A stretch of 64,000 nt of DNA from Escherichia coli (GTDB lineage: Bacteria; Pseudomonadota; Gammaproteobacteria; Enterobacterales; Enterobacteriaceae). Under the pieces are notes generated by a model. It was not told the origin of the DNA and searched no databases. It was given only the letters and a program-made list of their open reading frames with translations. This document shows, piece after piece, positions 19,349-47,807 of this stretch. How positions within the stretch are numbered: the first letter of the stretch is position 1; every line of letters starts with the position of its first letter. The position numbers and the translations under genes are program-made. The stretch lies in NCBI RefSeq assembly GCF_003334765.1, contig NZ_QOWT01000003.1. The stretch is one strand, 5' to 3'.

Positions 19349-19455
19349 AGCCGTTTCCTTTTTATAATCACGACATAAGGAATATAAAAATGGCAGAGGG
19401 AAGGGAAAAGGGAAAGAGAAAAATCTTAAGGCCAGCCGGATGCTGACCTTATTTG

Positions 19456-19674
19456 TTAACGTTCAATAATTTGCGAAACATCATCACGGTTAATTTGCAT
19501 CGCGTTACCTTGCTGATCGTGATAACTCACCAGCCCGGTATCATCATCAATTTCAGGTTTTCCATCGGTCAAAATCATACGGCCATCTTTGGTCGCCATG
19601 ACGTAATCACTGGAACACCCGGAAACAGCAAACGCCAGTCCGACTGCAGAAATTATTACTGCCCATTTTTTCAT
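19456..19674 (-). CDS. ygdR: small lipoprotein YgdR (DUF903)
   Basis: 72 aa; lipobox AVSGC; paralogue of YgdI in this window. Confidence 0.88.
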
Positions 19675-19811
19675 CCGGTTATCCTCATTTGGCCTACCTA
19701 TGATAATAGTCTGTTTATAAACCGACGTTATATATCTTGAAAGCAGGAAAATCTTAAACTGTGAGGGTAAAAGGAGTGAGTACGCCCTCCCGCAGGAGAG
19801 CGTACGGAGTA

Positions 19812-20525
19812 TCAGAGCGGATTCTTTTTGTTGCGAATCAAGTTGAGGCTTTCAACCGCAATAGAGAAGAACATCGCGAAGTAGATGTAACCTTTCGGTA
19901 CGTGGATGTCGAAACTTTCCAGAATCAGGGTAAAGCCCACCAGAATCAGGAAAGAGAGCGCCAGCATTTTTACCGAAGGATGGCGTTCGACAAAATCACC
20001 AATCGAGCGCGCGGCGAACATCATCACGCCTACGGCAATCACCACGGCTGCCATCATAATAAACAGGTGATCTGACAGACCCACAGCCGTAATCACCGAG
20101 TCGAGGCTAAAGATAATATCCAGCAGCATAATCTGCACGATAGCGCCGAGGAATGATGAAACGCGTGTTTTCAGCCCTTCTTCTTCACCTTCAATGGATT
20201 CGTGGATTTCCTTGCTGGCTTTCCAGATAAGGAACAAGCCACCCAGAAGCAGAATCAAATCACGGGCAGAAATTTCCTGACTGAATATTGTAAAAAGCGG
20301 ATTTGTCAGGCGCGTAACCCAGGCGATTGATGCCAGCAGCGCCAGACGCATAACCATGGCTCCCGCCAACCCCAGACGGCGCGCATGAGCACGTTGTGCT
20401 GTGGGAAGCTTTGCCACCACCAGAGAAAGGAAAATAATATTGTCGATCCCAAGAACGATCTCCAGCAGCGTCAGCGTACCGAGCGCAAGCCAGGCGTTAG
20501 GATCGGTTATCCATGCAAATAACAT
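19812..20525 (-). CDS. ygdQ: TerC-family inner membrane protein YgdQ
   Basis: 237 aa polytopic membrane protein; K-12 synteny. Confidence 0.88.
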
Positions 20526-20593
20526 CTAAAAAGCCCTGCCAAAAAAATGAAGCGGTAATTATATGCCCGGAAAGCGGCAGGTCAAAGCGATGG

Positions 20594-21283
20594 CTACTGG
20601 ATCAGAAAATGACGGGCCAGTAGTGCACTGGTGAAATTCTTCTTCAAATAAAAGCCGCGTGGCAGCGTCAGAATCCGTTCGCCCCGGGCACCAATGGCTT
20701 CGGTAAGCGCTTTCGCATTCGCTGCTTTCGGTCGTATCTGTAAATACTCCCCGTGACGAGCGGTAATCCGCTCAACCTGACCGAGAACAATCATATCCAT
20801 TAATTCTTCCCAGTCTTCGCGTAGCTGCCGGTCTTCCTCTTCATTCGGGCTCCACAGCAACGGTGATCCAACGCGACGCTGCGCCAGCGGGATGCTGCGC
20901 TCGCCTTCAACCGGTATCCACAGTACGCGTTTGAGTTTGTGGCGCACGTGGCTGGTTTCCCAGGTCACCCCGCTATTGCCCGTTAACGGGGCAACACAAA
21001 CGAATGTTGTTTCCAGCGGACGACCAAGACTATCCACAGGGATAGTTTTAAGTTCCACGCCCAGAGCAGCAAAATCTTGCTCAGGTTTACTCCCTGCGCT
21101 GGCACCTAGCCAGATCTCCAGTAACACGCCAATCCAGCCTTTATCGCGTTTTAAATTCTCTGGCGTAACCAGCCCGACAAGTGCCGCCAGTTCTCCCAAT
21201 GTATAACCAGAAAGTTGCTGTGCTTGCGCTAACAACTGTTCTTCAGTTTCGGGAGGAGAGAGCAGTGGGCGAGGTTGGGACAT
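20594..21283 (-). CDS. mutH: DNA mismatch repair endonuclease MutH
   Basis: 229 aa; matches K-12 MutH length and position. Confidence 0.93.
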
Positions 21284-21439
21284 GTCATGATACCTTGATT
21301 AAAAAACAAACAGTAATTATGTGCCGAATATTCGCAGTGTAACTTTTTCCACATGCGTTGTTCAATTCTCTGATTTATATTGCTTTTTAGGTTGCCGGTA
21401 ATCGAGTTGCGCAACACTGCAACGGGTTTTCCAAATCTG

Positions 21440-21850
21440 GTCACTGAAAATAAACAGGATCTTACACCATGTTATCCACAGAAAGCTGGGATAACTGTGA
21501 AAAACCTCCACTACTGTTTCCATTTACAGCCTTGACGTGCGACGAAACTCCAGTTTTTAGTGGTTCAGTGCTTAACTTAGTGGCACATTCTGTGGATAAA
21601 TACGGCATTGGTTGATCTTTCGCCAACCCGTAAATGAGAGGTGTGACCTGGGTCACGAATTACTCTTTTTCATTACTAAAATTACATGTAATGCATTGAC
21701 TGATAATGAATATTTTAAAATGTCTATATCGGGCTTATTCAGAATGCTCCGGGTTTTCCCGTAGTAATTCCGTAGTTCTTCACAACTCTATCCACAGAAA
21801 AGGTGAATAAAAACGGCTATCCACCCCTTCCTCTGTTTATAACTCTGCAC
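21440..21850. promoter_or_regulatory. DARS2-like DnaA-reactivating sequence (cluster of DnaA boxes between mutH and rppH)
   Basis: DnaA-box matches at 21472-21480 (TTATCCACA), 21591-21599 (TGTGGATAA, reverse), 21788-21796 (CTATCCACA) and 21817-21825 (CTATCCACC) inside a 684-bp intergenic region; DARS2 is reported between mutH and ygdP(=rppH). Boundaries approximate. Confidence 0.5.
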
Positions 21851-21967
21851 ATAACTGTGAGTTATTCAATTGTTATTAGTGTGTAATGCCCTGCAGAGAG
21901 TGGTTTACCGTCTTCCTGGAGTATGAAACAATCATTCGTATATAAAGCTTTATTTTGAGGTAGTCCG

Positions 21968-22498
21968 GTGATTGATGACGATGGCTACCGCCCAAACGTA
22001 GGTATCGTGATTTGTAATCGCCAGGGGCAGGTAATGTGGGCCCGGCGATTTGGTCAGCACTCCTGGCAATTTCCGCAAGGCGGAATCAACCCCGGAGAAT
22101 CCGCAGAGCAGGCGATGTACCGTGAATTGTTTGAAGAAGTAGGATTAAGCCGCAAAGACGTTCGAATCCTTGCTTCAACGCGTAACTGGTTGCGCTACAA
22201 ATTACCGAAACGTTTGGTGCGTTGGGACACGAAGCCGGTTTGTATCGGCCAAAAACAAAAATGGTTTCTCTTGCAGCTGGTGAGCGGCGATGCAGAAATC
22301 AATATGCAAACCAGCAGTACACCAGAGTTTGACGGCTGGCGATGGGTAAGTTACTGGTATCCGGTCAGACAGGTGGTGTCATTTAAACGTGATGTCTACC
22401 GTAGGGTAATGAAAGAGTTCGCGAGTGTGGTGATGTCACTGCAGGAAAATACGCCAAAACCACAAAACGCATCTGCTTATCGACGTAAAAGAGGTTAA
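21968..22498 (+). CDS. rppH: RNA pyrophosphohydrolase RppH (NudH, Nudix)
   Basis: 176 aa; Nudix box [22 protein letters not shown]; GTG start. Confidence 0.93.
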
Positions 22499-22510
22499 GT
22501 CACGCCAATT

Positions 22511-24757
22511 ATGCTCACTCGCCTGCGCGAAATAGTCGAAAAGGTAGCCAGCGCACCACGCCTGAATGAGGCGTTAAATATTCTGGTTACCGACATCTGT
22601 CTTGCGATGGATACCGAGGTCTGTTCGGTCTACCTGGCCGATCATGATCGACGTTGTTACTACCTGATGGCGACCCGGGGGCTGAAAAAACCACGCGGTC
22701 GCACTGTAACGCTCGCGTTTGATGAAGGGATCGTCGGCCTGGTTGGCAGGCTGGCGGAACCGATAAACCTTGCAGATGCGCAAAAGCACCCCAGCTTCAA
22801 ATACATCCCCTCCGTAAAAGAAGAACGTTTCCGCGCGTTTTTAGGCGTACCAATTATTCAACGTCGCCAGTTGCTTGGTGTACTGGTGGTACAGCAACGA
22901 GAGTTGCGCCAGTATGACGAAAGTGAAGAATCCTTCCTGGTGACGCTTGCCACCCAGATGGCAGCTATTCTTTCTCAGTCGCAGTTGACTGCCTTGTTTG
23001 GGCAATATCGCCAGACGCGAATCCGCGCATTACCGGCAGCACCTGGTGTGGCGATTGCCGAAGGCTGGCAGGATGCCACGTTACCTTTAATGGAACAGGT
23101 GTATCAGGCATCAACGCTGGATCCGGCTCTGGAACGCGAACGACTGACCGGGGCGCTGGAAGAAGCGGCAAACGAGTTTCGCCGCTACAGCAAACGCTTT
23201 GCCGCCGGTGCACAAAAAGAAACGGCGGCTATTTTCGATCTTTACTCGCACCTGCTTTCGGACACCCGGCTGCGTCGCGAATTGTTTGCCGAGGTTGATA
23301 AAGGCTCGGTGGCAGAGTGGGCGGTAAAAACGGTCATTGAAAAATTTGCCGAACAGTTTGCCGCGCTAAGTGATAACTATCTCAAAGAGCGGGCTGGCGA
23401 TTTACGTGCGCTGGGTCAGCGATTGCTGTTTCATCTTGATGACGCTAATCAAGGGCCGAACGCCTGGCCGGAACGTTTCATTCTGGTGGCAGATGAACTG
23501 TCAGCGACAACGCTTGCTGAGCTGCCCCAGGATCGCTTAGTCGGTGTTGTCGTGCGAGATGGCGCAGCCAACTCCCATGCTGCGATCATGGTACGTGCGC
23601 TGGGGATCCCTACCGTGATGGGCGCGGATATTCAGCCTTCGGTGCTGCATCGTAGGACGCTGATCGTTGATGGCTATCGCGGTGAATTGCTGGTCGATCC
23701 GGAGCCGGTACTGCTGCAAGAATATCAGCGGCTAATTAGTGAAGAGATTGAGCTTAGCCGTCTGGCGGAAGATGACGTCAATTTACCCGCGCAGTTAAAA
23801 AGCGGTGAGCGTATAAAAGTCATGCTCAATGCTGGTTTAAGCCCGGAACATGAAGAAAAACTGGGCAGCCGTATTGATGGCATCGGTCTTTATCGCACTG
23901 AAATCCCATTCATGCTGCAAAGTGGTTTCCCGTCGGAAGAAGAACAGGTGGCGCAGTATCAGGGGATGCTGCAAATGTTCAATGATAAACCCGTCACCTT
24001 GCGTACGCTGGATGTCGGAGCAGATAAGCAGCTGCCTTACATGCCGATCAGCGAAGAGAATCCATGCCTGGGTTGGCGTGGGATTCGCATTACGCTCGAT
24101 CAGCCGGAGATCTTCTTGATCCAGGTGCGGGCGATGCTGCGTGCTAATGCCGCTACGGGCAACCTGAATATTCTGTTGCCGATGGTCACAAGCCTCGATG
24201 AAGTTGATGAAGCACGCCGCCTGATTGAACGTGCCGGACGTGAAGTCGAGGAGATGATCGGTTACGAAATTCCCAAACCACGTATCGGCATCATGCTGGA
24301 AGTGCCGTCAATGGTATTTATGCTGCCGCATCTGGCAAAGCGGGTCGATTTCATCTCTGTTGGCACCAACGATCTGACTCAATACATTCTGGCCGTTGAT
24401 CGCAACAATACCCGGGTGGCGAACATTTATGACAGTCTTCATCCTGCAATGTTACGAGCTCTGGCGATGATCGCCCGGGAAGCGGAAATACATGGAATCG
24501 ATCTCCGTTTGTGCGGTGAAATGGCGGGCGATCCCATGTGCGTGGCAATCCTCATTGGGCTTGGGTATCGCCATCTGTCTATGAACGGACGTTCTGTAGC
24601 GCGGGCAAAATACCTGCTGCGGCGCATTGATTATGCCGAAGCAGAAAATCTTGCGCAGCGTAGTCTGGAAGCGCAACTGGCGACCGAAGTTCGCCATCAG
24701 GTTGCAGCCTTTATGGAGCGTCGCGGCATGGGCGGGCTGATTCGCGGAGGGTTATAG
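22511..24757 (+). CDS. ptsP: PTS-Ntr enzyme I (PtsP, GAF domain + EI)
   Basis: 748 aa; PEP-utilising enzyme motifs (GGRTSHAAI-like ANSHAAIMVRALGIP). Confidence 0.93.
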   Translation: MLTRLREIVEKVASAPRLNEALNILVTDICLAMDTEVCSVYLADHDRRCYYLMATRGLKKPRGRTVTLAFDEGIVGLVGRLAEPINLADAQKHPSFKYIPSVKEERFRAFLGVPIIQRRQLLGVLVVQQRELRQYDESEESFLVTLATQMAAILSQSQLTALFGQYRQTRIRALPAAPGVAIAEGWQDATLPLMEQVYQASTLDPALERERLTGALEEAANEFRRYSKRFAAGAQKETAAIFDLYSHLLSDTRLRRELFAEVDKGSVAEWAVKTVIEKFAEQFAALSDNYLKERAGDLRALGQRLLFHLDDANQGPNAWPERFILVADELSATTLAELPQDRLVGVVVRDGAANSHAAIMVRALGIPTVMGADIQPSVLHRRTLIVDGYRGELLVDPEPVLLQEYQRLISEEIELSRLAEDDVNLPAQLKSGERIKVMLNAGLSPEHEEKLGSRIDGIGLYRTEIPFMLQSGFPSEEEQVAQYQGMLQMFNDKPVTLRTLDVGADKQLPYMPISEENPCLGWRGIRITLDQPEIFLIQVRAMLRANAATGNLNILLPMVTSLDEVDEARRLIERAGREVEEMIGYEIPKPRIGIMLEVPSMVFMLPHLAKRVDFISVGTNDLTQYILAVDRNNTRVANIYDSLHPAMLRALAMIAREAEIHGIDLRLCGEMAGDPMCVAILIGLGYRHLSMNGRSVARAKYLLRRIDYAEAENLAQRSLEAQLATEVRHQVAAFMERRGMGGLIRGGL

Positions 24758-24907
24758 CGCGGATCATATACATATCTTTTAACGGTATCCGGCAACCAGC
24801 CAGGTCCCCTTGTGCTATTATTCGCACCTTTGGAGCGCCTGAAACCTGCGGCGCGCATTTCAATCGCTGTTCTCTTTCAGCGAAATAACAAGAACTTGTG
24901 GTGACAG

Positions 24908-25783
24908 ATGACCAGTAGCTATCTGCATTTTCCGGAGTTTGATCCGGTCATTTTCTCAATAGGACCCGTGGCGCTTCACTGGTACGGCCTGATGTATCTG
25001 GTGGGTTTCATTTTTGCAATGTGGCTGGCAACACGACGGGCGAATCGTCCGGGCAGCGGCTGGACCAAAAATGAAGTTGAAAACTTACTCTATGCGGGCT
25101 TCCTCGGCGTCTTCCTCGGGGGACGTATTGGTTATGTTCTGTTCTACAATTTCCCGCAGTTTATGGCCGATCCGCTGTATCTGTTCCGTGTCTGGGACGG
25201 CGGCATGTCTTTCCACGGCGGCCTGATTGGCGTTATCGTGGTGATGATTATCTTCGCCCGCCGTACTAAACGTTCCTTCTTCCAGGTCTCTGATTTTATC
25301 GCACCACTCATTCCGTTTGGTCTTGGTGCCGGGCGTCTGGGCAACTTTATTAACGGTGAATTGTGGGGCCGCGTTGACCCGAACTTCCCGTTTGCCATGC
25401 TGTTCCCTGGCTCCCGTACAGAAGATATTTTGCTGCTGCAAACCAACCCGCAGTGGCAATCCATTTTCGACACTTACGGTGTGCTGCCGCGCCACCCATC
25501 ACAGCTTTACGAGCTGCTGCTGGAAGGTGTGGTGCTGTTTATTATCCTCAACCTGTATATTCGTAAACCACGCCCAATGGGAGCTGTCTCAGGTTTGTTC
25601 CTGATTGGTTACGGCGCGTTTCGCATCATTGTTGAGTTTTTCCGCCAGCCCGACGCGCAGTTTACCGGTGCCTGGGTGCAGTACATCAGCATGGGGCAAA
25701 TTCTTTCCATCCCGATGATTGTCGCGGGTGTGATCATGATGGTCTGGGCATATCGTCGCAGCCCACAGCAACACGTTTCCTGA
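24908..25783 (+). CDS. lgt: prolipoprotein diacylglyceryl transferase Lgt
   Basis: 291 aa membrane protein; immediately upstream of thyA as in K-12. Confidence 0.93.
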
Positions 25784-25789
25784 GGAACC

Positions 25790-26584
25790 ATGAAACAGTA
25801 TTTAGAACTGATGCAAAAAGTGCTCGACGAAGGCACACAGAAAAACGACCGTACCGGAACCGGAACGCTTTCCATTTTTGGTCATCAGATGCGTTTTAAC
25901 CTGCAAGATGGATTCCCGCTGGTGACAACTAAACGTTGCCACCTGCGTTCCATCATCCATGAACTGCTGTGGTTTCTGCAGGGCGACACTAACATTGCTT
26001 ATCTACACGAAAACAATGTCACCATCTGGGACGAATGGGCCGATGAAAACGGCGACCTCGGGCCAGTGTATGGTAAACAGTGGCGCGCCTGGCCAACGCC
26101 AGATGGTCGTCATATTGACCAGATCACTACGGTACTGAACCAGCTGAAAAACGACCCGGATTCGCGCCGCATTATTGTTTCAGCGTGGAACGTAGGCGAA
26201 CTGGATAAAATGGCGCTGGCACCGTGCCATGCATTCTTCCAGTTCTATGTGGCAGACGGCAAACTCTCTTGCCAGCTTTATCAGCGCTCCTGTGACGTCT
26301 TCCTCGGCCTGCCGTTCAACATTGCCAGCTACGCGTTATTGGTGCATATGATGGCGCAGCAGTGCGATCTGGAAGTGGGTGATTTTGTCTGGACCGGTGG
26401 CGACACGCATCTGTACAGCAACCATATGGATCAAACTCATCTGCAATTAAGCCGCGAACCGCGTCCGCTGCCGAAGTTGATTATCAAACGTAAACCCGAA
26501 TCCATCTTCGACTACCGTTTCGAAGACTTTGAGATTGAAGGCTACGATCCGCATCCGGGCATTAAAGCGCCGGTGGCTATCTAA
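25790..26584 (+). CDS. thyA: thymidylate synthase ThyA
   Basis: 264 aa; [26 protein letters not shown]... conserved thymidylate synthase sequence. Confidence 0.96.
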
Positions 26585-26767
26585 TTACGAAACATCCTGC
26601 CAGAGCCGACGCCAGTGTGCGTCGGTTTTTTTACCCTCCGTTAAATTCTTCGAGACGCCTTCCCGAAATTTTGCAACGTCCTGCAACGGCGTAAATAGTC
26701 CGGAAGATGCGCCGAAGAAATAGAAACTGGCCCTCGTCTTTTTTTCTCCTCGCTCCATACTGCCGGC

Positions 26768-27238
26768 ATGAAAACACAACGTGGTTATACGCTGATTGAA
26801 ACGCTGGTCGCGATGCTGATTTTGGTCACGCTAAGCGCAAGTGGACTCTATGGCTGGCAATACTGGCAGCAGTCGCAACGGCTATGGCAAACCGCCAGCC
26901 AGGCGCGGGACTATTTGCTCTATTTACGTGAAGATGCCAACTGGCATAACCGCGACCACAGTATCAGCGTTATCAGGGAGGGGACGTTATGGTGCCTTGT
27001 GAGTTCCGCTGCTGGGGCCAATACCTGTCATGGCAGTTCACCATTGGTCTTTGTGCCACGCTGGCCCGAAGTCGAAATGAGCGACCTGACACCTTCGCTT
27101 GCTTTCTTTGGCCTGCGCAATACCGCATGGGCCGGGCATATTCGCTTCAAAAACTCAACGGGCGAGTGGTGGCTGGTGGTTTCGCCGTGGGGAAGACTCC
27201 GGCTTTGTCAGCAAGGAGAAACAGAAGGATGCCTGTAA
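26768..27238 (+). CDS. ppdA: prepilin peptidase-dependent protein PpdA (type IV pilin-like)
   Basis: 156 aa; N-terminal prepilin motif [16 protein letters not shown]. Confidence 0.88.
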
Positions 27239-27792
27239 AAGAGCAAGGTTTTTCTCTGCTGGAAGTGTTGATTGCTATGGCGATCAGTAGCGTATTGTTG
27301 CTGGGGGCGGCACGCTTTCTGCCTGCGTTACAGCGTGAAAGTTTAACGAGCACCCGTAAGCTGGCGCTGGAAGATGAAATCTGGCTGCGGGTATTTACCG
27401 TCGCGAAGCATCTCCAGAGGGCGGGTTATTGTCATGGCATCTGTACCGGCGAAGGGCTGGAAATTGTCGGACAGGGTGACTGTGTCATTGTGCAGTGGGA
27501 TGCGAACAGTAACGGTATCTGGGATCGCGAACCGGTAAAAGAGTCCGACCAGATTGGATTTCGTCTGAAGGAGCATGTGCTGGAAACGCTACGCGGTGCG
27601 ACATCCTGTGAAGGTAAGGGCTGGGATAAAGTCACTAATCCGGATGCCATCATTATCGACACTTTTCAGGTCGTACGTCAGGATGTCAGCGGCTTCTCGC
27701 CGGTGTTGACGGTTAATATGCGTGCTGCCAGTAAGTCTGAACCGCAAACCGTGGTGAATGCCAGCTATAGCGTGACAGGATTCAACCTGTGA
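27229..27792 (+). CDS. ppdB: prepilin peptidase-dependent protein PpdB
   Basis: ATG 27229 gives 187 aa starting [19 protein letters not shown] (prepilin leader); the track ORF from 26989 is an extension overlapping ppdA. Confidence 0.85.
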
Positions 27793-28196
27793 ACCGCGAA
27801 AAGGGTGTTTCGTCACTGGCTCTGGTCCTGATGCTGCTGGTTTTGGGTAGTTTGCTATTACAAGGAATGAGCCAACAGGATCGCAGTTTTGCCTCTCGCG
27901 TGAGCATGGAAAGTCAGTCATTGCGCCGCCAGGCCATCGTTCAGTCGGCGCTGGCGTGGGGAAAAATGCACTCCTGGCAGACGCAGCCAGCAGTTCAGTG
28001 CTCGCAGTACGCTGAAACCGATGCCCAGGTTTGTTTGCGTTTACTGGCAGATAATGAAGCCTTATTGATTGCCGGTTATGAAGGCGTTTCGTTGTGGCGA
28101 ACAGGCGAAGTCATTGATGGAAACATTGTTTTTTCGCCACGCGGCTGGAGCGATTTTTGTCCGCTGAAAGAGAGGGCGTTATATCAGCTTCCCTGA
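27789..28196 (+). CDS. ygdB: pilus-assembly-like protein YgdB
   Basis: 135 aa; GTG start overlapping the ppdB stop; N-terminal hydrophobic segment. Confidence 0.82.
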
Positions 28197-28504
28197 AGAA
28201 TCAACAAGGCTTTAGCCTGCCGGAGGTAATGTTGGCGATGGTGTTGATGGTGATGATTGTCACTGCGTTATCGGGTTTCCAGCGAACATTAATGAACAGT
28301 CTTGCCAGCAGAAACCAGTACCAACAGCTCTGGCGGCATGGCTGGCAGCAAACGCAACTGCGCGCGATTTCGCCACCTGCCAACTGGCAGGTCAACCGAA
28401 TGCAGACATCGCAGGCGGGATGTGTCAGCATCAGCGTTACGCTAGTTTCACCCGGGGGCAGAGAAGGCGAGATGACCCGCCTGCATTGCCCGAATCGTCA
28501 GTAG
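28157..28504 (+). CDS. ppdC: prepilin peptidase-dependent protein PpdC
   Basis: Prepilin motif [17 protein letters not shown]; exact start uncertain (track ORF uses TTG at 28157; the true start is probably a few codons downstream). Confidence 0.75.
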
Positions 28505-28516
28505 TCAGGAGCCGCT

Positions 28517-31885: not shown

Positions 31886-32060
31886 GTGCTGTATAAAAAT
31901 TGCGCAATCTATCCGCTTACTTTATGATGCGCACCAGTCACGGACTGATGGTTATATAAACATAGGCTGACTCGTGCAGCACAAGATTAAATTCTGGCAG
32001 ATGATTTGCGTTAACGTGTTGAATCTGGACAGAAAATTAAGTTGATTATGAGGTCCGTGA

Positions 32061-37900: not shown

Positions 37901-38484
37901 AACCGGTATTGACCGAGTGGATCACGGCTGTCCTCCAGGCACCTCTCAATGAAACCGGCGTAAGCCTGAGTCAACTTTCCGCCCGCAATAAACAGGTGGA
38001 GATGGAGTTTTATCTGCCGATTAGTGAACCGCTTATCGCCAGTCAGCTTGATACGTTAATCCGCCAGTTTGACCCGCTATCCGCAGGCTGCCCGCCGCTG
38101 GAGTTCATGCAGGTACGTGGCATGTTAAAAGGCTTTATCGACCTGGTGTTCCGCCACGAAGGGCGTTATTACCTGCTCGACTATAAATCCAACTGGTTGG
38201 GTGAAGACAGTTCGGCTTACACCCAACAGGCTATGGCAGCGGCAATGCAGGCACACCGCTATGATCTGCAATATCAGCTTTATACCCTGGCGCTGCATCG
38301 TTATCTGCGCCATCGCATTGCTGATTACGACTATGAGCACCACTTTGGCGGCGTTATTTATCTGTTCCTGCGTGGCGTTGATAAAGAACATCCGCAACAG
38401 GGGATTTACACAACCCGACCCAACGCCGGGTTGATTGCCCTGATGGATGAGATGTTTGCCGGTATGACCCTGGAGGAGGCGTAA
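34942..38484 (+). CDS. recB: exodeoxyribonuclease V beta subunit RecB (helicase-nuclease)
   Basis: [30 protein letters not shown] Walker A; 1180 aa from ATG 34942; overlaps the ptrA stop. Confidence 0.96.
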
Positions 38485-40310
38485 TGAAATTGCAAAAGCA
38501 ATTACTGGAAGCTGTGGAGCACAAACAGCTACGCCCGCTGGATGTGCAATTTGCCCTGACCGTGGCGGGAGATGAACATCCTGCCGTCACCCTCGCGGCG
38601 GCACTGTTAAGTCATGATGCCGGAGAGGGACACGTTTGTTTGCCGCTTTCACGACTGGAAAATAACGAGGCGTCGCATCCGCTGTTGGCGACCTGTGTCA
38701 GTGAAATCGGTGAGCTACAAAATTGGGAAGAATGCTTGCTGGCTTCTCAAGCGGTCAGCAGGGGAGATGAACCCACGCCGATGATCCTCTGTGGCGATCG
38801 TCTTTATTTGAATCGCATGTGGTGTAACGAGCGCACAGTGGCACGCTTTTTCAACGAAGTGAATCATGCCATTGAGGTTGATGAAGCTCTACTGGCGCAA
38901 ACCCTGGACAAACTTTTTCCAGTAAGCGATGAAATTAACTGGCAAAAAGTTGCGGCGGCAGTGGCGCTGACGCGGCGGATCTCGGTGATTTCCGGCGGCC
39001 CTGGCACCGGTAAAACGACCACCGTAGCGAAGTTGCTGGCAGCGTTAATTCAAATGGCCGACGGCGAACGCTGCCGTATCCGTCTGGCTGCACCAACGGG
39101 TAAAGCTGCCGCGCGCTTAACCGAATCTCTCGGCAAGGCTTTGCGACAGTTACCGCTGACCGATGAACAAAAGAAACGCATTCCGGAAGATGCCAGCACT
39201 TTGCACCGATTGCTGGGCGCGCAGCCGGGTAGCCAGCGTTTACGTCATCATGCCGGTAACCCGCTGCATCTTGATGTGCTGGTGGTAGATGAAGCGTCAA
39301 TGATCGATCTGCCTATGATGTCGAGACTGATCGACGCCTTGCCCGATCATGCGCGAGTGATCTTTCTCGGCGATCGTGATCAACTGGCCTCGGTTGAGGC
39401 TGGGGCTGTGCTGGGCGATATCTGCGCTTATGCCAACGCGGGCTTTACCGCCGAGCGTGCCAGGCAGCTAAGCCGCCTGACGGGGACTCACGTTCCGGCA
39501 GGAACCGGCACAGAAGCGGCATCTTTGCGCGACAGTCTCTGCCTGCTGCAAAAAAGCTATCGTTTCGGCAGCGATTCTGGCATTGGTCAGTTAGCTGCGG
39601 CGATCAACCGTGGTGATAAAACGGCAGTGAAAACCGTTTTTCAGCAGGATTTTACTGATATCGAAAAACGGCTTTTACAGAGCGGCGAAGATTATATTGC
39701 GATGCTTGAGGAAGCTCTTGCGGGTTACGGACGTTATCTGGATCTGCTGCAAGCGCGTGCCGAGCCGGATTTAATCATTCAGGCGTTCAATGAGTACCAG
39801 CTTTTGTGCGCCCTGCGGGAAGGGCCGTTTGGCGTGGCTGGACTGAATGAGCGAATTGAGCAGTTTATGCAACAGAAGCGCAAAATTCATCGTCATCCGC
39901 ACTCTCGTTGGTACGAAGGTCGACCGGTGATGATTGCCCGTAATGACAGCGCGCTTGGGTTGTTTAATGGCGATATCGGTATTGCGCTGGATCGCGGGCA
40001 GGGGACGCGCGTCTGGTTTGCGATGCCGGACGGCAATATTAAGTCTGTGCAACCGAGTCGCTTGCCAGAGCACGAAACTACGTGGGCGATGACGGTACAT
40101 AAATCGCAGGGATCGGAGTTCGACCATGCGGCGTTGATTTTGCCGAGCCAACGCACGCCGGTAGTAACGCGAGAGCTGGTTTATACCGCGGTGACCCGCG
40201 CGCGTCGCCGTCTGTCGCTGTATGCCGATGAGCGCATATTAAGTGCGGCAATCGCCACTCGTACTGAGCGGCGCAGTGGTCTGGCGGCGTTGTTTAGTTC
40301 ACGGGAATAA
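38484..40310 (+). CDS. recD: exodeoxyribonuclease V alpha subunit RecD
   Basis: 608 aa; Walker [11 protein letters not shown]; start overlaps the recB stop (TAATG). Confidence 0.96.
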
Positions 40311-40321
40311 ACGTAATTGCC

Positions 40322-40356
40322 GGATGCGACGTACGAGTGTTACGCATGTCGCATCC
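40322..40356. terminator. REP-like hairpin between convergent recD and argA
   Basis: ggatgcgac...gtcgcatcc perfect 9-bp inverted repeat. Confidence 0.5.
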
Positions 40357-40371
40357 GACGATTTTCATCGC

Positions 40372-41703
40372 TTACCCTAAATCCGCCATCAACACTTTGG
40401 ATTTACGCTGGTAGTTGTACAACTGCTTTTTGCTCTCGGGCAGTAAATCAATATCCACTGGGGTAAATCCACGTTCCTGGAACCAGTGAATACTGCGCGT
40501 GGTCAGCACAAACAATTTGCTTAAGCCGCTCTGCTTCGCCTGAGCGGCAATGCGTTCCAGCAGAACTTCACCCCTTGATGAACTGCGGTAATCCGGGTGA
40601 ACTGCCACACAGGCCATTTCCCCAATCTTCTCTTCCGGGAACGGATAGAGCGCGGCGCAGGCAATAGTCGTGTTATCGCGCTGAATAATGGTGAATTTGT
40701 CGATTTCCATCTCCAGCTGCTCGCGAGAACGGCGTACCAGAATACCTTGCTGCTCCAGTGGGCGAATCAACTCCAGAATACCGCCAATATCGTTGATTGT
40801 TGCGCGACGAATCTGCTCGGCGCTTTCCATCACAATCTGCGTACCGATACCGTCGCGTGAGAACAACTCTTGCAACAGCGCGCCATCTTCCTGATAACTG
40901 ATTAAATGACAGCGACGCACGCCGCTGCGGCAGGCTTTCACTGCGCCACGCAAAAAGCGCACCGTACCGGAGTTGTAATCGCCTTTCTCTTCCTGGGCTT
41001 CTACCCGCGCTTGCGCTTCGTTAGGGAAAAGTTCGGAGACAATATCACCGTCGTCATTAGTGACGCCCTGGGAAGAGCAAAAACCAATCATCTTTTCAGC
41101 TTTCAGTTTGATGGCCAGTTGAGTGGCAATCTCTTCCGAGGTCAGGTTAAAGCTCTCGCCAGTGACTGAAACAGCGACCGGCCCCATTAGCACTATTGCA
41201 CCGCTGTCCAGTTGACGATGGATCGCGTCTTCATCAATCCGCCGGATACGCCCGCTATGGCAGTAATCCACGCCGTCATCGACGCCCAGCGGCTGGGCAA
41301 TAATAAAATTGCCACTGACGACGTTGATATGCGCGCCCTGCAGCGGCGTGTTATTGAGACTCATCGACAGGCGAGCAGTAATATCCAGTTGCAATGTTCC
41401 CGCAGCCTGCTTCACCAGTTCCAGTGTTTTGGCGTCGGTCACACGTATATTCTTGTGATACAGCGGTTCGTGGTGATGCGCAGCCAGATTTGCGTCGATC
41501 TGCGGACGTGCGCCATAGACCACCACCAGACGGATGCCGAGGCTGTGCAACAACCCGATATCATTAACGATACTGGAGAAATTCTCATGCTCAATGGCTT
41601 CACCGCCGAGCATGATGACAAACGTTTTTCCCCGGTGGGTATTGATATAGGGAACCGAATGGCGGAATCCCTCGACCAACTCGGTTTTACGTTCCTTTAC
41701 CAC
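40372..41703 (-). CDS. argA: N-acetylglutamate synthase ArgA
   Basis: 443 aa from GTG at 41703 ([34 protein letters not shown]); track ORF extends to 41769. Confidence 0.93.
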
Positions 41704-41934
41704 GGCACACCTCTTTGCATGATTATTCGAAATTAGTGTATTTTTATTCTGTTTTTTCGCAGGGTGCAAGTGTAAATTTTATGCGAGAGCGACTTTTTTA
41801 TCAGTAATGCCGTGAATATAAAAAGAATGTTTACCGTTTATTAGATGACAGATTATGCGTCTTTCGCTAAAGTTTCCGGTCAAATTAGTCGTTTACTTGT
41901 TACACAGCTTAGATTTCTTTTGCTCGGGAGAGGC

Positions 41935-43188
41935 ATGTCAGGATCCAACACTGCAATCAGCCGTCGTCGTTTACTGCAAGGCGCGGGTGCCATGTGGCTA
42001 TTGAGCGTAAGTCAGGTCAGTCTGGCTGCGGTCAGCCAGGTCGTGGCGGTGCGCGTCTGGCCTGCGTCCAGCTACACCCGCGTGACGGTGGAATCAAATC
42101 GTCAGCTGAAATATAAGCAGTTCGCGTTGAGTAACCCTGAACGCGTGGTGGTGGATATCGAAGATGTAAACCTGAACTCGGTACTCAAGGGGATGGCGGC
42201 ACAAATTCGTGCAGACGACCCGTTCATCAAGTCGGCGCGCGTCGGGCAATTTGACCCGCAAACCGTACGGATGGTTTTTGAATTAAAGCAAAACGTAAAA
42301 CCGCAGCTGTTTGCCCTTGCGCCGGTCGCCGGGTTTAAAGAGCGTCTGGTGATGGACCTCTATCCGGCCAATGCACAGGATATGCAGGACCCGCTGCTGG
42401 CGCTGCTGGAGGATTACAACAAAGGCGACCTCGAAAAGCAGGTGCCGCCAGCGCAAAGTGGTCCACAACCGGGTAAAGCAGGGCGCGATCGTCCGATTGT
42501 CATTATGCTTGACCCTGGCCACGGTGGCGAAGACTCCGGTGCGGTGGGGAAATACAAAACGCGCGAAAAAGATGTGGTATTGCAAATAGCTCGCCGTTTG
42601 CGCTCTCTGATCGAGAAAGAGGGCAATATGAAGGTGTACATGACGCGCAATGAAGACATCTTCATTCCATTGCAAGTGCGCGTAGCAAAAGCCCAGAAAC
42701 AGCGTGCTGACCTGTTTGTCTCTATCCATGCCGACGCCTTTACCAGTCGTCAGCCGAGCGGTTCCTCTGTGTTTGCGCTCTCAACCAAAGGTGCAACCAG
42801 TACTGCGGCAAAATATCTGGCACAAACCCAGAACGCCTCGGACTTGATTGGTGGCGTGAGCAAAAGCGGTGACCGCTATGTCGACCACACCATGTTCGAT
42901 ATGGTACAGTCGCTGACCATTGCCGACAGCCTGAAGTTTGGTAAAGCGGTACTGAATAAGCTCGGTAAAATCAACAAGCTGCATAAAAATCAAGTTGAAC
43001 AGGCCGGGTTTGCCGTACTAAAGGCACCAGATATTCCCTCCATTCTGGTCGAAACGGCGTTTATCAGTAACGTTGAGGAAGAGCGTAAACTGAAAACGGC
43101 GACTTTCCAGCAGGAAGTTGCGGAGTCTATTCTTGCGGGGATTAAAGCGTATTTTGCCGATGGGGCGACGCTGGCGAGAAGGGGATGA
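41935..43188 (+). CDS. amiC: N-acetylmuramoyl-L-alanine amidase AmiC
   Basis: 417 aa from ATG 41935; Tat signal [10 protein letters not shown]; amidase_3 domain. Confidence 0.93.
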
Positions 43189-43261
43189 TAAAAAGGCGCT
43201 GAATGGCGCTTTTTTATGGGAGACCAGAAACAAAAAAACACCCGTTAGGGTGTTCAATAAT

Positions 43262-43338
<77 letters not shown>

Positions 43339-43351
43339 TCCGTGGATGCGC

Positions 43352-43379
43352 ACTATACTCCGCTCGCGTTTTCATGCAA
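43352..43379 (-). promoter_or_regulatory. near-consensus sigma-70 promoter for the tRNA-fMet gene
   Basis: On the minus strand TTGCAT-16 nt-TATAGT followed by a GC-rich discriminator just upstream of the tRNA 5' end. Confidence 0.55.
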
Positions 43380-43546
43380 CCTTTTTTTTACCCCGATCAC
43401 GGATTTGGCATGATTTTGAACAAAAACAAATCACTAAAGCCTATTTTTTGTGCAAAATTTGCGTCAGGGAGAGGCTGCTCATTTCATTAAACGCGGCGGT
43501 TTGTTATCTTCGTTGCGCCTTATTTTTTAACCTGAAGAAGAGAACA

Positions 43547-44644
43547 ATGAAAGGACGTTGGGTAAAGTACCTTCTTATGGGCACGGTTGTGGCAATGCTT
43601 GCCGCCTGCTCTTCCAAACCAACCGATCGCGGACAGCAATATAAAGACGGGAAATTTACCCAGCCTTTCTCTCTGGTGAACCAGCCAGATGCCGTTGGCG
43701 CGCCGATTAACGCCGGTGATTTTGCCGAGCAAATTAACCATATCCGTAATTCGTCACCGCGTCTGTATGGCAACCAGAGTAATGTTTATAACGCGGTGCA
43801 AGAGTGGCTGCGCGCAGGCGGTGATACCCGCAATATGCGCCAGTTCGGCATTGATGCCTGGCAGATGGAAGGTGCCGACAACTATGGTAACGTGCAGTTT
43901 ACCGGTTATTACACGCCGGTAATTCAGGCGCGCCATACCCGCCAGGGCGAGTTCCAGTATCCTATTTACCGTATGCCGCCAAAACGTGGTCGTCTGCCGT
44001 CTCGTGCGGAGATCTACGCGGGGGCATTGAGTGATAAATATATTCTCGCTTACAGTAACTCCCTGATGGATAACTTCATTATGGATGTGCAGGGTAGTGG
44101 GTATATCGACTTTGGTGATGGCAGTCCGCTTAACTTTTTCAGCTATGCAGGGAAAAACGGTCATGCCTATCGCAGCATTGGTAAGGTGCTGATCGACCGT
44201 GGCGAAGTGAAAAAAGAAGATATGTCGATGCAGGCGATTCGTCACTGGGGCGAAACACACAGTGAAGCCGAGGTTCGCGAGCTGCTGGAACAGAACCCGT
44301 CTTTCGTCTTCTTTAAACCGCAATCTTTTGCTCCGGTGAAAGGGGCAAGTGCGGTGCCGCTGGTTGGTCGCGCGTCAGTTGCCTCTGATCGTTCCATTAT
44401 TCCGCCAGGTACTACCTTGCTGGCAGAAGTGCCGTTGCTGGATAATAACGGCAAATTTAATGGTCAGTACGAACTGCGTCTGATGGTGGCGCTGGATGTC
44501 GGTGGTGCAATCAAAGGCCAACACTTCGATATCTATCAAGGGATCGGGCCGGAAGCCGGACACCGCGCAGGTTGGTACAACCACTATGGACGTGTCTGGG
44601 TGCTGAAAACCGCCCCGGGCGCAGGTAACGTCTTTAGCGGCTGA
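43547..44644 (+). CDS. mltA: membrane-bound lytic murein transglycosylase A (MltA)
   Basis: 365 aa from ATG 43547; lipoprotein signal LLMGTVVAMLAACSS; the 508-aa track ORF reads through the tRNA and is an artefact. Confidence 0.93.
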   Translation: MKGRWVKYLLMGTVVAMLAACSSKPTDRGQQYKDGKFTQPFSLVNQPDAVGAPINAGDFAEQINHIRNSSPRLYGNQSNVYNAVQEWLRAGGDTRNMRQFGIDAWQMEGADNYGNVQFTGYYTPVIQARHTRQGEFQYPIYRMPPKRGRLPSRAEIYAGALSDKYILAYSNSLMDNFIMDVQGSGYIDFGDGSPLNFFSYAGKNGHAYRSIGKVLIDRGEVKKEDMSMQAIRHWGETHSEAEVRELLEQNPSFVFFKPQSFAPVKGASAVPLVGRASVASDRSIIPPGTTLLAEVPLLDNNGKFNGQYELRLMVALDVGGAIKGQHFDIYQGIGPEAGHRAGWYNHYGRVWVLKTAPGAGNVFSG

Positions 44645-44680
44645 TGTGATATTCTGTATGCCGTTTTTACGGATATGACA

Positions 44681-44862
44681 GGGTGAGGGGTAACCTCACA
44701 TCCTGATTATTGACTAAGTGCGCGTTGTTCATGCCGGATGCGGCGTGAACGCCTTATCCGGCCTACAAATCATGCAAATCCAAAATATTGCAGGAGTTAT
44801 GTAGGCCTGATAAGCGTAGCGCATCAGGCATTTATGCGTTTAGGGTGAGGGATAACCTCGCC
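44681..44862. repeat. REP/BIME cluster between mltA and tcdA
   Basis: Two REP palindromes (gccggatgcggcgtgaacgccttatccggcctac at about 44733-44766; gtaggcctgataagcgtagcgcatcaggca at 44801-44830) flanked by direct repeats GGGTGAGGG(G/A)TAACCTC at about 44681 and 44843. Confidence 0.7.
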
Positions 44863-44882
44863 CTTTTTAATTCTGAGGTGCT

Positions 44883-45689
44883 ATGTCTGTGGTAATTAGT
44901 GATGCATGGCGTCAGCGTTTTGGTGGCACAGCGCGTCTGTATGGTGAAAAAGCGTTGCAACTGTTTGCTGACGCGCATATTTGTGTGGTTGGTATCGGTG
45001 GTGTCGGTTCCTGGGCGGCGGAAGCGCTGGCGCGCACGGGGATTGGCGCAATCACGCTTATCGATATGGATGATGTGTGCGTCACCAATACCAATCGGCA
45101 AATTCATGCCCTGCGCGATAACGTTGGGCTGGCAAAAGCGGAAGTTATGGCGGAGCGTATTCGCCAGATTAACCCGGAGTGCCGTGTAACGGTGGTGGAT
45201 GATTTCGTGACGCCGGATAACGTAGCGCAGTATATGAGCGTGGGTTATTCGTACGTGATTGATGCCATTGATAGTGTACGGCCCAAAGCGGCGCTGATTG
45301 CTTATTGTCGGCGCAATAAAATCCCACTGGTCACAACCGGTGGCGCGGGTGGGCAGATTGATCCGACGCAGATTCAGGTTACCGATCTGGCGAAAACGAT
45401 TCAGGACCCGCTGGCGGCGAAGTTGCGCGAGCGCCTGAAAAGCGATTTTGGCGTAGTGAAAAACAGTAAAGGTAAGCTCGGCGTGGATTGCGTGTTTTCT
45501 ACTGAAGCGCTGGTGTACCCGCAGTCAGACGGTACGGTGTGTGCGATGAAAGCCACGGCAGAAGGGCCGAAGCGGATGGATTGTGCATCTGGATTTGGCG
45601 CGGCAACGATGGTGACCGCCACCTTTGGGTTTGTTGCGGTTTCTCATGCGCTGAAGAAGATGATGGCGAAAGCGGCGCGTCAGGGTTAA
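44883..45689 (+). CDS. tcdA: tRNA threonylcarbamoyladenosine dehydratase TcdA (CsdL, E1-like)
   Basis: 268 aa; ThiF/MoeB-type nucleotide-binding motif VVGIGGVGSWAAEALARTG. Confidence 0.92.
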   Translation: MSVVISDAWRQRFGGTARLYGEKALQLFADAHICVVGIGGVGSWAAEALARTGIGAITLIDMDDVCVTNTNRQIHALRDNVGLAKAEVMAERIRQINPECRVTVVDDFVTPDNVAQYMSVGYSYVIDAIDSVRPKAALIAYCRRNKIPLVTTGGAGGQIDPTQIQVTDLAKTIQDPLAAKLRERLKSDFGVVKNSKGKLGVDCVFSTEALVYPQSDGTVCAMKATAEGPKRMDCASGFGAATMVTATFGFVAVSHALKKMMAKAARQG

Positions 45690-45739
45690 ACAATCAGGTC
45701 GGATGAGACGCGAACGTCTTATCCGACCCGGTTCTGTGC

Positions 45740-46183
45740 TTAAACCTGCTTCGTCGCAGCGATAATCGCCTCGCTTAACGCATTTAACCCCTGGCTGCGT
45801 GAGGCGCTAAGCTGCGCACGTAATCCCAGCTCATCAAACAATGCCAGTGGTGACTGTGCCTGCAACTCGGCGGCGGTTTTCCCCTCAACGGCAGTCAACA
45901 ACACCGCCAGCAGGCCGCGCACAATGCGCCCTTCGCTGTCGCCAAAGAAATGCATTTTGCCGTTTTCAGCCACTGTATATCCCAGCCAGACGCGGTTTTC
46001 GCATCCGGCAATCTCTTTAGCCTGCGCTTTTAACTCGTCTGGCAATGCCGGAAGCTGTTTCCCCAGCATGATCAACTGGCGATATTTATCTTCCCATTGC
46101 GTCAACGGTGCGAAGGTATTGCGTAACGTTTCTGCGGTTACGGTTGTGCCGAACGGATGTCCGGCGAATTGCGGGTTTGTCAT
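45740..46183 (-). CDS. csdE: sulfur acceptor protein CsdE (SufE-like)
   Basis: 147 aa; immediately downstream of csdA with a 1-nt overlap. Confidence 0.92.
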
Positions 46184-47388
46184 TAATCCACCAATAATTC
46201 CAGCGCGCGGTCAACGGCATTCACCAGCGCATCCACATCACTCTTTGTATTATATGGCGCAAAAGAGGCGCGCAGTGTGCCGGTTACGCCTAATTCTGCC
46301 AGTAGCGGCTGAGCGCAATGCTGCCCGGCCCGCAGGGCAATACCGTACTCCGCCAGCAGCGTCACCATATCGCTATGATGAACGCCAGCAAAATCAAAGG
46401 CCAGCAGGCTGGAATCCTGGCAGCGGAATGAACGAAAGCCGGGACGTTTCGCCAGCGCATCTTCCGCCAGCGTTGCTAAGCTACGGCTCCAGCTTTCGGC
46501 CTGGTTGATATCGTAATCTGCCAGCCATTCCAGCGCCGCGCTTAATCCTATGACACCAGCGACATTTGGCGTTCCAGCTTCCAGTTTCCACGGCGCAGAT
46601 TGAGTCGTGAAGCCGTCAAAACTCACTTCGTGAACCATTTTGCCGCCGCCCAGCCAGGGCGACATCGCCTCCAGCAGTTCTGATTTACCATACAGCACGC
46701 CGATACCTGTCGGGCCATACAGTTTGTGACCTGAAAAAGCATAGAAATCAATATCCAGTTGCTGAACATCCGCGGGGAAATGCACTGCCCCCTGAGCACC
46801 ATCAACCATCACCACCATCCCGGCTGAATGAGCAAAGGTAATCGCTCGCGCCAGATCCGGGCAACCGCCAGTAACGTTCGACATCTGACCCAACGCCAGA
46901 ATCCGACTACGGGGAGTAATCAGTTCTGGCAACAAATCGACATCCGGCAGTCGCTGCGCATTAAGCGGCAATTTCACCACTTTGGCTCCAGTTTGTTGGG
47001 CGACCATCAGCCAGGGGACGAGGTTGGCGTGGTGTTCTGCCACGCTGACAATAATCTCATCGCCCGGTTGCAGACGCGGACGCGCATAGCATTGTGCCAC
47101 CATGTTGATGGATTCAGTGGTGCCGCGCGTCCAGACGATAGTTTTATCATCCGGTGCATTCAGTAATTGCGCCACTTTCTCTCGTGCAGCTTCATAACGC
47201 GCGGTCAGGCGTTGGGCTTCGGCAAACTGGCTGCGATGGACGTTTCCGGCGCTCAGACTGTAAAACTGTTGGGTGGCTTCAACCACGGCTTCAGGTTTAA
47301 GCGCGGTCGCGGCGCTGTCGAGATAGACGCCCGCATCCTGTAGTGCGGGAAACTGGGCGCGAAACTGCGCGGGATTAAAAACGTTCAT
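46183..47388 (-). CDS. csdA: cysteine sulfinate desulfinase / cysteine desulfurase CsdA
   Basis: 401 aa from ATG 47388 ([17 protein letters not shown]) preceded by GGAG; class V aminotransferase fold. Confidence 0.93.
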
Positions 47389-47579
47389 GGTACTCCTCGG
47401 CTTGATGCACCGATCGTGACGCAAAATTCACTTTGATACAAGGAGAGTGCTAACCATCAGAATTATCTGGATATCCTGGCGAAGCCGCGTAAGTAACATA
47501 TGCTGAATAGTGTTAGGCGTTAATTTTAGCCTGTTAATCAATACTATTAAGATTTATTAATCACTTTAAGGAGAAGATG

Positions 47580-47807
47580 ATGAAAAAGACTGCCGCAATT
47601 ATTTCTGCCTGTATGCTGACTTTTGCCCTGAGCGCCTGTTCCGGTTCGAACTATGTGATGCACACCAATGACGGACGTACCATCGTCTCTGACGGCAAAC
47701 CACAGACTGATAACGATACCGGTATGATTTCGTATAAAGACGCTAATGGCAACAAACAGCAGATCAACCGTACTGACGTGAAAGAGATGGTCGAACTGGA
47801 TCAGTAA
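47580..47807 (+). CDS. ygdI: small lipoprotein YgdI (DUF903)
   Basis: 75 aa; lipobox LSAC; paralogue of YgdR. Confidence 0.88.

Follow-up and report, generated by a model that had tools for sequence, protein, structure and literature searches.

The DNA analysed here, a 64 kb stretch referred to as the window, is Escherichia coli chromosome and holds the genes ygdR and ygdI. The best explanation for the results as a whole, which we hold with considerable confidence, is that these two genes are true paralogs derived from an ancient duplication within Enterobacterales, and that they encode mature outer-membrane lipoproteins wired to separate stress circuits. The pair itself is already known, being textbook annotation that is present in the annotation of every E. 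coli genome, and its recognition is correct but ordinary and nothing new as a finding.

Identification of the two genes

The first-pass annotation had reported lipoproteins of 72 and 75 aa encoded about 28 kb apart, and both the lengths and the positions of the open reading frames proved exact (Table 1). The two genes are divergent, with a gap of 27,905 bp between the coding sequences. For ygdI, the mechanical open reading frame from 47577 would encode 76 aa, and RefSeq places the start at the second ATG, a choice supported by alignment with three other genera. RefSeq annotates 'lipoprotein YgdR' on DNA that is 100% identical to the ygdR region and labels the ygdI product 'YgdI/YgdR family lipoprotein'. 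Both proteins match Pfam PF06004 over model positions 1-49 of 49 (E 2e-24 for YgdR and 8e-24 for YgdI) as well as NF033216 (105.9 and 113.2 bits, respectively, with a cut-off of 42), the NCBIfam entry 'YgdI/YgdR family lipoprotein' whose name was taken from this very pair. Together with the lipoboxes, these results bear out the gene names, the DUF903 membership and the lipoprotein nature assigned earlier. The window proteins are the two founding members of the YgdI/YgdR family (DUF903 PF06004; NF033216; SCOP family b.38.1.6), and they agree with it in sequence, HMM scores, lipobox, size and fold, with no difference. By six-frame tblastn, ygdR and ygdI are the only family copies in the window (reciprocal E 3e-26, with the next best match at about 0.7).

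Table 1. Coordinates of the features at the ygdR and ygdI loci of the window.
Feature	Position	Strand	Description and basis
Terminator-like hairpin and T-run	19427..19451	-	A few bases past the ygdR stop; 10-pair stem with 5 G-C pairs (pattern scan)
ygdR CDS	19456..19674	-	72 aa plus stop, DUF903 lipoprotein (ORF list)
ygdR lipobox	19615..19626	-	V17-S18-G19-C20, then Ser at +2; Cys20 is the lipidated first mature residue (translation)
Conserved box TTTAAGATTTTCCTGCTT	19741..19758	-	Putative regulator site 5' of ygdR, similar to an RcsB box
ygdI CDS	47580..47807	+	75 aa plus stop, DUF903 lipoprotein (ORF list)
ygdI lipobox	47628..47639	+	L17-S18-A19-C20, then Ser at +2 (translation, family alignment)

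Similarity, age and origin of the pair

The claim that YgdR and YgdI align along their whole length, which chance-level identity would have contradicted, was upheld by BLASTP, in which 43 of 72 residues were identical (60%) with one 1-residue gap (E 1e-31), and the consensus string given earlier corresponds to this alignment except at trivial positions. Shared hydrophobic N-termini alone could produce a likeness between two lipoproteins. When the signal peptides were removed, however, the mature domains still shared 29 of 50 residues (58%, E 9e-23), and their Smith-Waterman score was 166, against 25 +/- 5 (maximum 57) in 5000 shuffles (z = 26.7). A recent duplication or gene conversion is likewise contradicted, since synonymous sites are saturated (pS 0.81), the nucleotide identity is 59%, and in other genera the orthologs of ygdR and of ygdI occupy separate, corresponding syntenic slots. 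An origin of the likeness by chance, signal peptides, recent duplication or gene conversion was therefore given practically no credence, and the mature-domain, synonymous-site and synteny results refute it. A recent segmental duplication was also rejected, because the flanking DNA is not duplicated: blastn recovered just a 59-nt stretch of 69% identity, and the genes flanking ygdR are unrelated to those flanking ygdI. The duplication is ancient rather than recent.

The ygdR and ygdI regions are present in essentially all of 5,426 complete E. coli genomes. The slots mutH-ygdQ-ygdR-tas and csdA-ygdI-gcvA are conserved, and Citrobacter, Silvania and Trabulsiella share the spacing of about 27-28 kb and the divergent orientation; the earlier description of two copies kept in one neighbourhood thus extends to pair, spacing and orientation in at least four Enterobacteriaceae genera. 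The ygdI slot was surveyed by exact-protein look-ups within other genomes. A scan of a genome collection with a 7-sequence alignment kept 80 loci, all of them YgdR orthologs because the ranking uses the first sequence, and the neighbour-joining tree of the family was built on 53 columns without support values. Across genera YgdR is 89-100% identical where YgdI is 79-91% identical, and between genera YgdR varies less than the neighbouring MutH. The closeness of ygdR and ygdI might be a relic of a local duplication, in which case a single inversion that moved one gene of a tandem pair would have left the two divergent, at either end of a 28 kb block of core genes.

Anatomy and fold

The mature lengths of YgdR and YgdI are 53 and 56 residues (family median 54), and each protein consists of a single domain, in which a tether of 3-4 residues leads from the lipid anchor to the first strand of a barrel of about 50 residues. 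Cys20 is the sole invariant column in a 54-sequence family alignment, and Asp at +2 occurs in none of 58 family members. Because Ser occupies the +2 position, YgdR and YgdI are predicted to be sorted to the outer membrane by the Lol-avoidance rule, and YgdI has been reported as outer-membrane lipoprotein cargo of vesicles (PMC8284480). Real domain fusions were not found in the family, the longer database entries being mis-called starts, frameshifts or low-complexity tails; a 1125-aa match, P0260, was discarded as a spurious fusion, being an ankyrin-repeat protein, and some members carry the JGI names 'BamE' and 'YcfL', which were treated as automatic mis-annotations.

Structures of the family have been deposited as 2JN0, 3FIF, 5CAI, 2RA2, 2RD1, 3BDU and 2RB6, among which 2JN0 and 3FIF are YgdR itself (identical to residues 21-72). 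The barrel is mostly acidic and is a small beta-barrel of the Sm-like or SH3-like kind, a fold shared with Hfq, Sm and LSm proteins; the Hfq matches have sequence identities of 6-17%. Sm and Hfq proteins have an N-terminal alpha-helix and a bent sheet of five strands, whereas in the structure model the only helix is the signal peptide (residues 3-16), and the mature part is modelled as six strands with no helix. Furthermore, Sm and Hfq proteins form cytoplasmic RNA-binding rings that are hexameric or heptameric, whereas the DUF903 protein is predicted to be exported and lipid-anchored in the periplasm, and for this reason RNA binding by DUF903 appears implausible.

Regulation and stress responses

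In transcriptome and proteome tables, as distinct from promoter dissection, ygdI is sigma-S/Cpx dependent and ygdR is listed as Rcs induced. Both genes rise strongly when Lol transport is blocked by a LolCDE inhibitor, and both are induced by acid and by cathelicidin; ygdR is also listed as induced by peptidoglycan damage. The same induction table contains OsmB, YbaY and MliC, which resemble the DUF903 pair: they too are small stress-induced outer-membrane lipoproteins, with a lipid anchor and induction through sigma-S/Rcs and upon Lol inhibition (PMC5105897). The table gives a function, lysozyme inhibition, for MliC and none for the DUF903 proteins.

The box TTTAAGATTTTCCTGCTT upstream of ygdR is conserved in 11 Enterobacteriaceae genera in an alignment of the ygdR upstream region, and it has one exact match within the window, where shuffled sequences gave an expectation of 0. 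It is a candidate RcsB-type regulator site, as judged from its sequence; compared with the RcsAB-box consensus, it matches well in one half only. SroC derives from the gltIJKL transcript, and a statement in one preprint that it comes from ygdR mRNA was disregarded on that account.

Proposed role and alternatives

The earlier description of DUF903 lipoproteins as being of unknown function still fits the literature that was searched, and a search with the PDB codes of the family yielded a single protein-design paper besides irrelevant matches. Since the short-tethered barrel would lie flush on the inner leaflet of the outer membrane, we tentatively put first the role of a small, non-enzymatic, membrane-proximal binding module. 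The barrel would dock onto the periplasmic side of an outer-membrane protein or lipoprotein, or else associate with itself there, and in this way help to protect the envelope under stress. Divergence in how they are regulated, and perhaps in what they bind, may explain why both copies have persisted.

Alternatively, YgdR and YgdI could be redundant, sharing one partner and one role, and be kept only for differing expression conditions or dosage. The identity of the mature domains, the presence of all family-conserved positions in both proteins, and the induction of both by the same LolCDE inhibitor, acid and cathelicidin are consistent with redundancy, whereas approximately 40% of the mature residues differ, the net charges of the two mature proteins are -6 and -3, the rates of evolution are unequal, and both copies are kept in conserved slots across genera. 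We regard redundancy as a serious possibility, although we lean against it. In addition, the barrel could be a peptidoglycan-binding module of the SH3b type that ties the outer membrane to the cell wall. UniProt-derived names containing 'SH3-like' and the listing of ygdR among genes responding to peptidoglycan damage point in this direction, and we consider it very unlikely nonetheless.

Plasmid-borne and mobile relatives

Widespread Col-type plasmids of 2.5-4.4 kb carry little cargo other than related DUF903 genes, which occur on them either singly or as two diverged genes in tandem. The tandem pair, whose members are referred to as A and B and are 41% identical, is found on ColRNAI plasmids of 4.1-4.4 kb, downstream of mbeD and on the opposite strand, while many plasmids of 2.5 kb carry the B type alone. 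Accessory DUF903 copies also occur in mobile or prophage-like regions of Sodalis and Pantoea. A phrase search found no literature linking the YgdI/YgdR family name with plasmids.

By analogy with the hetero-rings of eukaryotic Sm/LSm paralogs, diverged DUF903 pairs such as YgdR/YgdI and plasmid A/B might come together at the outer membrane as mixed Sm-like oligomers. The Sm-like fold would allow this, and the tandem A and B genes are, independently of ygdR and ygdI, another case in which two diverged members of the family occur together. The PDB entries of the family contain, as calculated, 2-8 chains each, a number that is no evidence of a biological ring. In contrast, the occurrence of the B type on its own, the lack of the canonical Sm N-terminal helix in the structure model, and the different regulators reported for ygdI and ygdR argue against mixed assembly, which appears distinctly improbable.

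Another analogy is offered by exclusion systems. ColE1 Exc2, like the plasmid DUF903 proteins, is a tiny outer-membrane lipoprotein encoded on a mobile element, and the tandem DUF903 pair occupies the position of exc2/exc1 in ColE1. The phage lipoproteins T5 Llp and phi80/N15 Cor, which mask the receptor FhuA, are likewise tiny outer-membrane lipoproteins of mobile elements, as are the plasmid DUF903 proteins, whereas the chromosomal DUF903 genes are core genes. It could therefore be imagined that a DUF903 lipoprotein binds an outer-membrane receptor from the periplasm and blocks the entry of phage, colicin or plasmid, and that the chromosomal copies are domesticated forms. The near-exclusive presence of relatives as cargo of very widespread tiny plasmids, the exc2/exc1 position, the accessory copies in Sodalis and Pantoea, and the correlation in Serratia between a DUF903 cluster and a type VI secretion locus (PMC12165300) are in keeping with this idea. 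However, homology of the plasmid pair to Exc1 and Exc2 was rejected by a search with the family HMM with filters off, in which only the signal peptide of Exc2 was aligned (5.6 bits). In a PHROGs search YgdR had no matches, and the four obtained for YgdI were weak (best E 9e-5), led to families of unknown function and each started at the signal peptide. Matches in a phage collection were either bacterial contigs filed there in error or very small fragments that lacked annotation. Furthermore, ygdR and ygdI are core, syntenic and stress-regulated, unlike typical exclusion genes. An exclusion or masking function is accordingly unlikely. Combining both analogies, DUF903 lipoproteins might constitute a self-sufficient protective or exclusion module, often working as a diverged pair and possibly as a mixed Sm-like assembly positioned on the inner leaflet of the outer membrane, so that ygdR/ygdI and plasmid A/B would be two versions of one two-component device; we offer this as speculation with a low probability of being correct.

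Implications

The results describe a highly conserved, stress-induced family of outer-membrane lipoproteins whose structure has been solved. Four features make the question of function experimentally approachable: the tether is very short, the Sm-like barrel is acidic, the two chromosomal copies are regulated separately, and relatives are the near-sole cargo of tiny plasmids.

Paralogy and family assignment of YgdR and YgdI

The first-pass annotation had described two DUF903 lipoproteins, YgdR and YgdI, that align along their whole length, and both ORFs were located where it had placed them. The mechanically called ygdI ORF starts at 47577 and encodes 76 aa; the RefSeq start, at the second ATG, is also conserved in other genera. 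The full proteins share 60% identity (43/72) with a single 1-residue gap (E 1e-31), and their mature domains, with signal peptides removed, share 58% (29/50, E 9e-23). A local alignment score of 166, against 25 +/- 5 in 5000 shuffles (maximum 57), rules out chance-level identity and confirms that the similarity is far above chance. No third DUF903 copy was found in a six-frame search of the entire window. Around both genes the DNA matches E. coli chromosomes at 99.8-100% identity, and these carry the annotations 'lipoprotein YgdR' and 'YgdI/YgdR family lipoprotein'. The pair is standard annotation, the family carrying both gene names.

Assignment to the family was borne out as well: both proteins cover all 49 positions of the Pfam DUF903 model, score more than twice the cut-off of the NCBIfam model NF033216 ('lipo_YgdI_YgdR') and carry the lipobox Cys. 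The family is small (only 168 representatives reach E <= 1e-3 in a set of 1.84 billion clusters at 50% identity) and single-domain, its longer entries being due to wrongly called starts, frameshifts or tails of low complexity. The chains of PDB 2JN0 and 3FIF are identical to YgdR residues 21-72, and structures of YgdI-like proteins have been solved (5CAI, 2RA2).

Positions of features in the window and of the tandem DUF903 genes on two plasmids
Feature	Record	Position	Strand	Remark
OmrA/OmrB-family sRNA match	window	14560-14641	plus	86 bits
OmrA/OmrB-family sRNA match	window	14756-14843	plus	97 bits
ygdR	window	19456-19674	minus	72 aa ORF
Box TTTAAGATTTTCCTGCTT	window	19741-19758	minus	upstream of ygdR
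lgt	window	24908-25783	plus	between ygdR and ygdI
tRNA-Met	window	43262-43338	minus	single copy in window
ES036 (CssrF) sRNA family	window	44766-44808	plus	Rfam 46.5 bits, gathering score 37.6
ygdI	window	47580-47807	plus	75 aa from second ATG (RefSeq start)
GcvB sRNA gene	window	47824-48029	minus	Rfam 199 bits, convergent with ygdI
GcvB terminator hairpin	window	47831-47852	minus	immediately behind ygdI
46-aa ORF	window	47856-47996	minus	within gcvB
Tandem DUF903 pair	NZ_CP030009.1 (L096)	2079-2312 and 2334-2561
Tandem DUF903 pair	NZ_CP038598.1 (L097)	2094-2321 and 2343-2576

Age and history of the duplication

The duplication is old, because synonymous sites are saturated (pS 0.81; dN 0.38) and nucleotide identity is low, at 59% in the codon alignment with a single 59-nt blastn match at 69%. 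A neighbour-joining tree (53 columns, without support values) separated YgdR, YgdI and a third clade, made up of 77-aa proteins encoded at other loci in Enterobacter, Proteus and Pseudocitrobacter, with Aeromonas and betaproteobacterial members outside all three. YgdI evolves faster than YgdR, since its orthologs are 79-91% identical and those of YgdR 90-100% across genera in which the identity of the neighbours Tas, YgdQ and MutH is 80-95%.

Among the 80 best genome loci, from many Enterobacteriaceae genera, 78 have ygdR between mutH and tas (66 of them with ygdQ as well), and this slot recurs in Rouxiella (Yersiniaceae, without ygdQ) and Musicola (Pectobacteriaceae); the csdA-gcvA slot of ygdI was found in Citrobacter, Trabulsiella, Silvania and one genome labelled Erwiniaceae. 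That the two copies are kept in one neighbourhood, as had been noted, agrees with their spacing, which is 27.9 kb in the window and, on single contigs, 28.2 kb in Citrobacter sp. FP75, 27.1 kb in Silvania confinis and 27.2 kb in Trabulsiella odontotermitis. Each region was recovered from at least 5,425 of the 5,426 complete E. coli genomes. For two genes placed at random in a genome of ~5 Mb, the chance of such close spacing is about 1%, and therefore the proximity is probably a trace of local duplication. The genes are divergently oriented wherever both are placed on one contig, and a putative single inversion carrying one member of a tandem pair with its adjoining block would produce exactly this arrangement. 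The earlier interpretation of the pair is correct.

Some variation was seen at these loci. In Rouxiella aceris (L087: 8250-11379) ygdQ is missing between mutH and ygdR, and three extra genes lie between ygdR and tas: one for an MFS transporter, one for a class-V aminotransferase that shares its Pfam family with CsdA, and one of unknown product. In E. coli strain 582 the match to the ygdR region (NZ_CP120568.1 1011003-1012479) is split in two around an annotated IS1 transposase, so that an IS1 element interrupts the tas-ygdR-ygdQ region of this strain. The block bounded by the paralogs also holds amiC, mltA and lgt, whose product catalyses the first lipoprotein lipidation step, and the position of lgt between two lipoprotein genes is probably a coincidence. 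Between amiC and mltA the window has one tRNA-Met gene and strain 120899 a tandem run of three, which is copy-number variation of a tRNA array.

Regulation and flanking signals

Eleven Enterobacteriaceae genera keep box TTTAAGATTTTCCTGCTT, which occurs once in the window, and some 25 nt downstream of it comes another conserved block with the consensus GTTATTACTAGACTAT. Compared with the RcsAB-box consensus, the right half of box TTTAAGATTTTCCTGCTT fits and its left half is one base off, for which reason it is graded only as a candidate RcsB/RcsAB site; the two blocks together may correspond to an RcsB site and a -10 region. The ygdR gene has a terminator-like hairpin of its own, and tandem OmrA/OmrB-family matches lie ~5 kb away. 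At ygdI, the convergent GcvB gene lies 17 nt past the stop codon, and therefore its terminator hairpin lies immediately behind ygdI, a layout kept in Citrobacter, Trabulsiella and one genome labelled Erwiniaceae. The ORF within gcvB is probably not a gene.

According to the literature, stress induces the two genes via different regulators: ygdI is listed as induced by RpoS and rose 25-53 fold under a LolCDE inhibitor, and ygdR, for which Rcs induction upon peptidoglycan damage is listed, rose 8-12 fold in the same experiment (PMC5105897). Salmonella YgdI is a sigma-S-dependent small protein (PMC5437024), ygdI was decreased in a Citrobacter rodentium cpxRA mutant (PMC6153362), and acid shift and cathelicidin treatment modestly raised both genes. 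[quoted passage not shown] Plain redundancy of YgdR and YgdI is a rival explanation.

Proposed working

Several features are shown or directly readable: an export signal and a lipidation site, a residue that sorts to the outer membrane, a very short tether and one acidic Sm-like barrel, together with strong purifying selection and the ancient origin of the duplication. Among 58 full-length members the lipobox Cys is present in all, its column being invariant in a 54-sequence alignment, and the +2 residue is Ser in 35, Ala in 13, Gly in 7, Thr in 2, Gln in 1 and Asp in none. Because +2 is never Asp, the family is predicted to consist of outer-membrane lipoproteins by the Lol-avoidance rule, the established sorting rule for such proteins. 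Experimental work on vesicles has employed YgdI as their outer-membrane lipoprotein cargo (PMC8284480). The tether from the lipidated Cys to the first strand is just 3-4 residues in 56/58 members, and the median pI is 5.1 (net charge -6 for YgdR and -3 for YgdI).

Peptidoglycan binding by the barrel is a rival reading; a barrel within a few residues of its lipid anchor would be unable to reach peptidoglycan, and would most plausibly act on the inner side of the outer membrane as a small binding module. Its partner might be an outer-membrane protein or lipoprotein, or it might self-associate; our confidence in this proposed binding role is fairly low. A hetero-oligomeric YgdR/YgdI pair is a further rival. 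An accessory DUF903 copy adjoins a gene of the YfaZ family (PF07437), an outer-membrane protein family, in Pantoea (L089: 8001-8237, 8301-8843), and another lies 1.5 kb from one in Proteus mirabilis (L093: 8001-8234, 9740-10282); these two cases could be a clue to the partner.

DUF903 genes on plasmids and mobile regions

In a tblastn search of PLSDB with YgdI, 381 plasmid records proved to carry a family member, and 278 of these records are typed as mobilizable. The B type, a 75-aa plasmid protein 54% identical to YgdI, occurs at >=90% identity in about 259 records, among the matches listed mostly plasmids of 2494-2511 bp, with hosts that include Enterobacter, Klebsiella, Salmonella, Serratia, Citrobacter and E. 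coli. One 2.5 kb plasmid has as annotated genes a DUF903 lipoprotein, rop and one hypothetical gene, and nothing else. ColRNAI/MOBP plasmids of 4.1-4.4 kb carry the B type in tandem with an A type, at 41% mutual identity, the A type being 65% identical to the third paralog of the Enterobacter chromosome. This suggests that DUF903 lipoproteins, either singly or paired with a diverged relative, make up a self-sufficient plasmid cargo. Plasmid NZ_CP085745.1 (L095) also has such a gene, and very widespread Col-type plasmids of 2.5 kb carry almost nothing else as cargo. A YgdI-like copy in Sodalis sp. C49 (L094: 8001-8207) lies in a prophage-remnant region amid phage-tail, holin, HigB-toxin and Inhibitor_I78 genes.

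Another rival is that DUF903 lipoproteins serve in exclusion or masking. On the Salmonella plasmid (L097) the tandem pair lies on the strand opposite to mbeD and downstream of it; in ColE1 this position is taken by exc2 and exc1. The plasmid pair is not homologous to ColE1 Exc1 or Exc2. The plasmid-borne DUF903 genes are the most promising route to the function of this highly conserved envelope family.
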